A stretch of 64,000 nt of DNA, from sequence record PV654517; one strand, 5' to 3'. The notes below the pieces were generated by a model. That model did no database searches and was not told where the DNA came from. It saw only the letters and a list, made by a program, of their open reading frames with translations. Position 1 is the first letter of the stretch. Every line of letters starts with the position of its first letter. Of the stretch, positions 5,801 through 6,198 are shown piece by piece. This stretch comes from Escherichia phage vB_ECOLIGBLB0003. The position numbers were made by a program, and so were the translations under genes.

Positions 5801-6198
5801 TATAAATTCTCTTTTAAATGAAAATGCAGGACTTATTGGCATTGCCTGCGCAAGCCCTCAAGGGGAACATAGGTTTTTGGATATTTAACGACCAGGATAA
5901 CCATAAACCCGTCATCATACCTTATAGCTCTTATCTGTTGCACACCGTTAGCTTAAAGGTTCCGGGTTCGATTTCTCGAGGATAAGATATATACTGATGG
6001 ATATATAGGCCTTGAGGCGTACTCCCGATTGGCCATCACCTCGGGGTAGCATGCACTTGCCGCTATAAGAATAACATTCAAGAGGTACACCGTAAAACTG
6101 CCGGGGTCTTAAAACTATAATGATTCGCAAATCATTAATCAGACAGTTCGACGGCTCCTCGATTTTAGCTCACACTAAGGCAGTGAATCTCCAATAAA

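Follow-up and report, generated by a model that had tools for sequence, protein, structure and literature searches.

Between the genes rIII and 30.9 of hundreds of T4-like phages lies a structured RNA of a new family. Here it is described for Escherichia phage vB_ECOLIGBLB0003 (sequence record PV654517), a Tequatrovirus, of which a stretch of 64,000 nucleotides (nt), called the window below, was analysed. Positions 5500-6500 of the window are 100% identical to Shigella phage SHFML-26. The element covers 149 nt of the interval 5801-6198, and comparison between phages firmly establishes it as a sharply bounded, strongly constrained structured RNA that is read from the gene strand and carried as an optional cassette. 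A sequence-only reading of the window had singled out the whole interval as a non-coding, GC-enriched stretch that could be an RNA element, a long regulatory leader or the remnant of a lost gene. The first of these ideas is strongly borne out for the module at 5921-6069 and for a separate hairpin module at 6082-6160, but not for the roughly 400 nt as one unit, since the interval is a mosaic of modules and not a single feature. In T4, the corresponding gap between rIII and 30.9 is also non-coding, but it has only 244 nt. Alignment with T4 places an insert of about 154 nt (approximately 5920-6073) between flanks that both phages share.

The fold was obtained by comparison of natural copies. Twenty-three distinct copies were aligned with MAFFT and not fitted to any model (alignment A3). 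From A3 a covariance model, R1, was built, whose E-values are rough, and 35 distinct copies were then fitted to R1 (alignment A4). RNAalifold on A3 gives a four-way junction, formed by the closing stem P1 and the arms P2, P3 and P4, with no unpaired junction nucleotides (Table 1). All helices are supported by compensatory changes. Both sides change in all five of the pairs counted in P1 (A-U to G-C or U-A), in nine of ten pairs of the P2 stem, in four of seven pairs in P3, in five of seven in P4, and in all four pairs of P4a (C-G, U-A, U·G and others), while P4b shows two compensatory switches, from A-U to U-A in phage Cronus and from C-G to U-A in a divergent subfamily, subfamily B, that is described below. 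The upper stem of P2 is the dyad CCCGA-N12-TCGGG that the sequence-only reading had noticed; its strands lie at 6024-6028 and 6041-6045, and it covaries (C-G to U-A, G-C to U-A or A-U). Of the 1515 cells counted in A4, 98.5% hold standard pairs, and double changes occur in 30 of the 44 pairs. These values were not reached in any of 500 shuffles, and sliding the partners by 1-3 columns left 25-42% paired. With the pseudoknot included, the MAFFT alignment A3 is 97.2% paired, with double changes in 25 of 47 pairs.

The pseudoknot is a kissing interaction of six base pairs between the apical loops of P2 and P3. In A3 this helix is 96.4% paired and carries C-G/U-A, G-C/A-U/U-A and G-C/A-U switches. 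Six variant classes of the two loops were found (CGAUGG/CCAUCG, UGAUGG/CCAUCA, CUAUGG/CCAUAG, CAAUGA/UCAUUG, UUGUAUU/AAUACAA and UGCAUU/AAUGCA), and each of them is perfectly Watson-Crick over 6-7 base pairs (bp), whereas loops taken from different classes can form at most 5 bp. In the main subfamily, the kissing interaction replaces a 3-bp stem that RNAalifold had placed at the tip of P2, and it also explains the variants in Cronus and EcS1; subfamily B does extend P2. A long-range pairing of element positions 17-23 with 122-129, and AGG/CCU alternatives, were considered as well and are unsupported or contradicted by the variants. The strand can be read from the wobble pairs: paired columns hold G·U or U·G 74 times and A·C or C·A once. 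Thus the structure belongs to the minus strand and runs in the same direction as rIII and 30.9. The single-sequence folding energy is unremarkable (z = -1.8 on the minus strand and -1.2 on the plus strand), so the case for structure is comparative and not thermodynamic.

The unpaired parts of the element are also strongly conserved. About 50 nucleotides in unpaired segments or junctions stay the same from genus to genus, namely the internal loop AAGKGCAU/CUYAWG in P2 and the segments GAMCC...GCUAA and GCAACA in P4. The nucleotides of the P2 internal loop are invariant or nearly so in both subfamilies. The block at 5935-5952, which also served as a search pattern, varies little or not at all among 34 distinct copies that come from several genera. 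The P4a loop is GAAA or GUAA in most copies of the main type and UAAA or UAAU in a few. Two readings of the P2 internal loop, as a 5-nt K-turn and as an 11-nt tetraloop receptor, were dropped, since the resemblance is only loose and subfamily B has no GNRA loop on P4a. In Escherichia phage EcS1 (L020 526-681), the P4b loop is 7 nt longer: AGCCUAUGGCCA replaces UUUAA in its variable middle, while the flanking GAMCC and GCUAA are kept. The P2 loop of this copy is also longer.

Of 50,697 phage records searched with the interval by BLAST, 179 have the full arrangement, and many others have that of T4, where two separate pieces give 61% coverage. Klebsiella and Raoultella phages match only the central 135 nt, with 91-96% identity, as do Enterobacter, Kosakonia and Erwinia phages with about 80-83% identity. 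In every such phage that was checked, rIII lies on one side of this core and a 30.9 homologue on the other, and the intergenic DNA around it cannot be aligned. Between T4-like genera, the nucleotide identity of the element is 79-94%, compared with 75-78% for rIII and 70-80% for the gene of gp31. Altogether, the element occupies the rIII-30.9 gap in about 400 T4-like phages of Enterobacterales in GenBank, with T4 itself lacking it, and each genome examined holds a single copy. No copy was found in T4, in two Mosigviruses, or in the uvsY-uvsW region of the window phage. In the Mosigviruses ESh15 and HX01 (L172, L173), an unrelated insert of about 45 nt, TTACTATCATGCGTCAGAAAAGTGTTATCTGTGTAAGTCTTGGTG, stands at the insertion point of the element, which marks the rIII-30.9 site as a hot spot of insertion and deletion. 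Shigella phage CT01 (L171 1321-1454) carries a naturally truncated copy, in which P2 and the 5′ half of P3 are deleted (junction ...CACTGCCTTAG|TATATATC), and this phage is viable without an intact element.

Outside these phages the element was not found. No match was obtained in 5,426 E. coli genomes or in PLSDB plasmids. Two motif patterns were also run on 185,579 genomes of bacteria and archaea, where R1 accepted none of the matches, and two motif matches in Bacteroidales are due to chance. R1 likewise rejected as chance all of about 130 loci from pattern scans of IMG/VR with loose motifs, and the matches in IMG/VR and metagenomes were all contigs of T4-like phages. Judging by these searches, the element is not host-derived.

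A 38-nt BLAST match in Yersinia phage JC221 led to subfamily B, whose R1 scores are 92-106 bits. About 20 phages carry it, comprising Pseudotevenvirus and Slopekvirus-type phages and JC221; among them are Cronobacter phage GAP161, phiEap-3 and Klebsiella phage mtp5. Upstream of these copies are uvsY, uvsY.-2 and an ORF (open reading frame) of 45 amino acids (aa); on the other side lie uvsW.1 and uvsW, which are convergent, and the strand of the element has no gene downstream. The two loci have no protein neighbour in common. In subfamily B the helices are kept with other sequences, while the loop and junction blocks remain constant. Its P1 stems are unrelated in sequence and still pair (AAUUGUAG/CUACGAUU and AGAUUAG/CUAAUUU), P4 is UUCGUG/CACGAA, and P4b is CCUGG/CAG.

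No known RNA family accounts for the element. With Rfam 15 (4227 covariance models) and E-values up to 10, no family was placed on the interval within positions 5400-6600. The element alone gave no match at the laxest filters, a copy of subfamily B gave only chance matches of 9-15 bits, and the whole window gave no match at the gathering score. ARAGORN found no transfer RNA (tRNA) or transfer-messenger RNA (tmRNA) at 5400-6600, and a search of the literature, including exact sequence strings, returned no description of the element. Several likenesses to known RNAs were also rejected. Those to RNase P RNA (GUGCAACAGA, GAACCCGG and CAAGGCC-AUAGG) fail because the motifs are not collinear, other pairings covary and Rfam has no match, and those to PK1 of tmRNA (UGCAUGC..CGAGG..GGCC..CCUC) and P1 of SAM-I (CUUAUC...GAUAAG) fail on the same grounds. 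By our estimate, the 7-8-mers that the element has in common with these three RNAs are expected by chance. A likeness of GUAUAUAUC to loop B of the hairpin ribozyme was discarded, as this segment forms the 3′ strand of P3 and covaries. The tRNA-like GGTTCGATT lies on the wrong strand, with the T-loop-like GGTTCGA on the non-transcribed strand. Just after rIII, TTCACTGCC...GCTAAAA recalls a CRISPR I-F repeat, but the hairpin differs.

What the element does can be proposed only with reserve. Tentatively, and at somewhat less than even confidence, we take the element for a non-coding RNA of a new family that stands alone and binds a partner, an accessory gene of cassette type whose RNA is released from the transcript of the gene upstream. 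This reading is favoured because the element has no fixed neighbour, lacks signals of its own, has P1 as a closing stem, and bears many invariant unpaired nucleotides on a rigid scaffold. The variable order of the element relative to another conserved module of the interval (M2, see below), its two loci and its absence from T4, Mosigvirus and the uvsY-uvsW locus of the window phage all point to independence from the neighbouring genes. Lacking its own promoter and terminator, the RNA would be made within the upstream transcript, and its closed fold would let it persist as a discrete, nuclease-resistant molecule. The scaffold would then present the invariant loops to a specific partner, most likely a protein of the host or the phage and possibly a small ligand. 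The element would thus act as an accessory RNA gene, and the neighbouring gene would not be regulated by it.

Several points weigh against this proposal. Everything beyond the fold we infer from sequence, and in generic scans no flanking promoter or terminator marks the element as an independent gene. Ribozymes and transcript stabilisers can look exactly like it in sequence data. All carriers are T4-like phages of Enterobacterales, so that the phylogenetic depth is limited, and part of the invariance of the loops may reflect limited divergence or recent horizontal spread. Not every surface is equally constrained, as the P4a loop is unrelated in subfamily B.

The same features could belong to a self-cleaving ribozyme or another kind of RNA-processing element. 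It would cleave polycistronic transcripts at two places, in the rIII-30.9 gap and where the uvsY operon ends, and its active site would form by docking of the conserved P2 internal loop with the P4 junction. Multi-helix junctions, a distal loop-loop contact and two invariant clusters are the general architecture of nucleolytic ribozymes, and hammerhead, twister and related ribozymes in phages are also intergenic, on the strand of the flanking genes and without a fixed neighbour. The element is comparable to the hairpin, twister-sister and VS ribozymes in size range, too. However, its helix topology differs from all three, no Rfam ribozyme model matches it at E-values up to 10, a cleavage site cannot be named, and with its 149 nt and about 50 invariant positions it exceeds most small ribozymes in both size and conservation. 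We regard this reading as unlikely. Less likely again is a stabiliser acting in cis in the 3′ untranslated or intercistronic region, where the fold would block 3′-to-5′ exonucleases or the entry of endonucleases and so protect the messenger RNA of rIII or of uvsY and uvsY.-2. The element does lie directly downstream of a gene on the same strand at both loci, it is tightly closed, and no promoter of its own was found. But simple hairpins do this job across T4-type genomes, and one that is shared with T4 (module A) already follows rIII in the window; the invariant unpaired nucleotides and the covarying kissing loops would be left unexplained. In GAP161, a terminator-like GC hairpin with flanking A/U tracts stands about 170 nt beyond the element (L175 2800-2835, seen by eye and not called by the generic scan), so that the element is probably not a 3′ end.

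Control of 30.9 by a riboswitch or protein-binding leader, close to the leader of the sequence-only reading, is very improbable. The fold resembles an aptamer, and the main subfamily always precedes the highly conserved 30.9. In lysine and purine riboswitches, helices radiate from a junction above a closing P1, covarying kissing loops tie two arms together, and invariant nucleotides cluster in junctions and internal loops, all of which the element has as well. Unlike these aptamers, it has a four-way junction without unpaired nucleotides, no match to an Rfam riboswitch and no expression platform. It ends 120 nt before the start of 30.9, other conserved modules lie in between, and neither a terminator nor a hairpin sequestering the ribosome-binding site follows it. 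T4 has 30.9 without the element, and the second locus, which has no downstream gene on the same strand, argues directly against a leader or riboswitch. Least probable of all is a protein gene, either decayed or very small, or a signal at the level of DNA such as a recombination or homing-endonuclease site or a shuffling sequence. Its basis is that some GenBank records annotate coding sequences of 41-44 aa across the element, and that the interval is a hot spot of insertion and deletion flanked by stem-loops of a shuffling type. A recurrent ORF runs from the AUG in the conserved GCAUG to the UAA in the conserved GCUAA, and it is a coding sequence in some of these records. It has 34 codons in about half of the distinct copies, but in about half it stops after 3-11 codons, and its frame is shifted by indels in others (COW86c and L013). 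Substitutions follow base pairing and not codon logic, and the preservation of pairs including the pseudoknot, with G·U tolerated and A·C not, speaks for RNA of one strand and not for duplex DNA or protein. On this evidence, the ORF is neither a gene nor, as the sequence-only reading had also considered, the remnant of a lost 30.x gene. Comparison with related phages, where an intact gene or a lack of conserved structure might have appeared, came out for structure.

Two further RNAs of T-even phages are comparable. T4 species 1 and 2 (rnaC and rnaD) are also non-coding, have about 120-140 nt, come from a longer transcript and have no known function. They are unrelated to the element by the covariance model, and differ from it in being located in the tRNA cluster and in being present in T4, which lacks the element. 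In the tRNA/rnaC/rnaD region of T4, R1 with its filters off reached 6.5 bits at best, off the RNA genes.

Table 1. Features of the rIII-30.9 interval and of the second locus. Positions are those of the window unless a locus is named.
Feature	Position	Strand	Description
gp31	6596-6931	minus	gene upstream of rIII
rIII	6199-6447	minus	gene upstream of interval, same strand; PHROG 1457, E = 5e-44
Interval	5801-6198	minus	between rIII and gp30.9 homologue
Small hairpin CACUG-CCU-UAGUG	6173-6185	minus	just past rIII stop codon; CGCUA-CCU-UAGUG in related phages is compensatory
Module A	6082-6160	minus	irregular hairpin of about 80 nt, common to T4; starts 39 nt downstream of rIII; apex 6118-6137
Whole structured RNA, including 8-bp closing stem P1	5921-6069 (149 nt)	minus	R1 175.8 bits, single copy in window; T4 alignment; covariation
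P1, 5′ strand CUUAUAGC	6062-6069	minus	pairs with GCUAUAAG at 5921-5928
P2 arm	6008-6061	minus	base GGC/GCC; conserved asymmetric internal loop AAGKGCAU/CUYAWG; 10-bp stem with two bulges; 12-nt apical loop
P2 apical-loop hexamer UGAUGG	6033-6038	minus	kissing partner, complementary to 5995-6000
P3 hairpin UAUAUA-UCCAUCAG-UAUAUA	5988-6007	minus	loop 5995-6000 (CCAUCA) kisses P2 loop
P4 arm	5929-5987	minus	stem UCUUAUC/GAUAAGA around inner three-way junction
P4a hairpin UCGA-GAAA-UCGA	5968-5979	minus	loop GNRA in most copies
P4b hairpin ACCCG/CGGUGU	5942-5967	minus	15-nt loop GAMCC-(variable)-GCUAA
Most conserved block GCUAACGGUGUGCAACAG	5935-5952	minus	end of P4b loop, P4b 3′ strand and junction strand GCAACA
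Module M2, GUAUGAUG..GGUUAUC..CGUUAAAUA	5873-5920	minus	conserved block with covarying stem, common to T4
Local hairpin CCC(C)-UUGA-GGG	5855-5865	minus	PeSL stem-loop type, common to T4
gp30.9 homologue, 58 aa, basic	5624-5800	minus	PHROG 1427
Intrinsic terminator of 30.9	5599-5620	minus	follows gp30.9 homologue
Subfamily B copies	L175 2501-2655 (GAP161); L007 1187-1340; L115 9224-9376; L174 1499-1649		3′ end of uvsY operon

The remaining modules of the interval are largely shared with T4. Module A consists of the stems GAGG...CCUC and CCGUCGAAYUGUC/GACARUUUUACGG, which show their own compensatory changes (alignment A5). Its apex is the second dyad of the sequence-only reading, TAATGATT-CGCA-AATCATTA at 6118-6137, which is common to T4 and covaries from UAAUGAUU/AAUCAUUA to UAUCGAUU/AAUCGAUA. 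Module A is a probable 3′ stem-loop or terminator of rIII, and it may stabilise rIII or be a stem-loop of the PeSL (promoter-early stem-loop) type. The generic scan did not call it as a terminator; the apex is AU-rich and is followed by UAGUUUU. It is unannotated in T4 records. M2 is present in T4 and in Kosakonia, Erwinia and Klebsiella phages, and its stem appears to covary (GACGGG/CCUGGUC, GUGG/CCAC and GUGGA/UUCAC, also in L003, L005, L006 and L004). M2 lies upstream of the element in Klebsiella phage Roth21 and downstream of it in the other phages. The local hairpin at 5855-5865 bears on a long-range pairing of CCTCAAGG with CCTTGAGG that the sequence-only reading had proposed. This pairing is not supported: CCTCAAGG sits at 5856-5863, not near 5846, and is half of the local hairpin. 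T4 has this hairpin as well but no counterpart of the segment at 6010-6017 with which CCTCAAGG was supposed to pair, and in the element that segment is part of the internal loop of P2. Klebsiella, Erwinia and Cronobacter phages have hairpins like the local one next to the element.

PeSL are shuffling cassettes of T4-type phages whose cargo is protein ORFs (PMC2839356, PMC4122927). Like them, the element shows sharp presence or absence in a hot spot of insertion and deletion, variable order and two loci. GC stem-loops of the form GUACCC(C)-NNNN-GGG(G)C, which resemble the published ones, recur on either side of the element and elsewhere in these intergenic regions (L003, L008, L012, L024, L028, L006, L020 and L175). 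At the insert boundary, the 3′ flank of module A and the start of the insert together read TTTACG-N17-TATTCT; it was read from the sequence, with no call by the generic promoter scan. Here we infer a weak early-promoter-like motif, as it resembles the PST/T4 early-promoter consensus TTTACW-N17-TAYWAT of the promoter-stem-loop cassettes (PMC4122927). Unlike in PeSL, the cargo here is a structured RNA. Nor is the element itself a PeSL, since it lacks promoter hexamers and its fold goes far beyond a stem-loop.

Several observations concern the wider setting. The sequence-only reading was right that the interval has no convincing ORF, as only short, unconserved ORFs occur in it, and right on its G+C (0.422 compared with 0.355 in the window). 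This value is in the top 4% of 398-nt windows, and the central 147 nt reach 0.469 (top 1.6%). It was also right on the strong terminator after the 58-aa ORF, the only one called; a terminator scan found none inside 5801-6198. Its statement that genes of the window are packed with gaps under 100 nt holds only roughly. A crude scan found a dozen stretches of at least 150 nt without an ATG-initiated ORF of at least 60 aa, and two ORF-free stretches are as long as this interval. The SHFML-26 record leaves about 41669-42057 (389 nt) and 43106-43468 (363 nt) unannotated, near the topoisomerase gene 52, and R1 has no match in these two gaps. The gp30.9 homologue is rich in Lys and Arg and unusually conserved for this neighbourhood, with 86% protein identity to its Klebsiella phage homologue; it has no Pfam family, and its PHROG has no assigned function. 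At 5585-5668 on the minus strand, there is a sub-threshold Rfam match to the Rhizobiales small RNA Atu_C8 (31.4 bits, with the gathering score at 50; E = 4e-4). It is driven by the terminator hairpin of 30.9 and its U tract, and so it almost certainly does not reflect homology. Some GenBank annotations over the interval look spurious, such as a "1,4-alpha-glucan branching enzyme, GH-13-type" in records of the E. coli phages FJ1, P8 and KMB26. The records of Roth21 (XNO93669) and COW86c_228 place the 41-44-aa "hypothetical proteins" across the RNA element.

The genomes of T4-type phages belong to the most thoroughly studied in biology, and these phages are in wide use as therapeutic candidates. 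As T4 itself lacks the element, decades of T4 genetics could not reveal it, and GenBank records leave it blank or carry spurious small proteins in its place. At the least, the yield is a new RNA family that has good support and a covariance model ready for use, and the annotation of hundreds of genomes can be corrected. The element is also compact enough for structural work. Being more conserved than the neighbouring chaperonin gene (gp31), it very likely does something specific. Two loci, together with gain and loss among close relatives, are the pattern of accessory genes for interaction with the host. It is possible, though rather doubtful, that it represents a new functional class of RNA, either a novel self-cleaving ribozyme or an abundant stand-alone aptamer that sequesters a host factor or an immune signalling molecule. 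In the latter case, it would be a counter-defence or host-takeover gene acting at the level of RNA, shuffled as a cassette among T-even phages. The accessory toolkit of phages would gain a member made of RNA if the element proved to be a ribozyme, an aptamer or a protein decoy.

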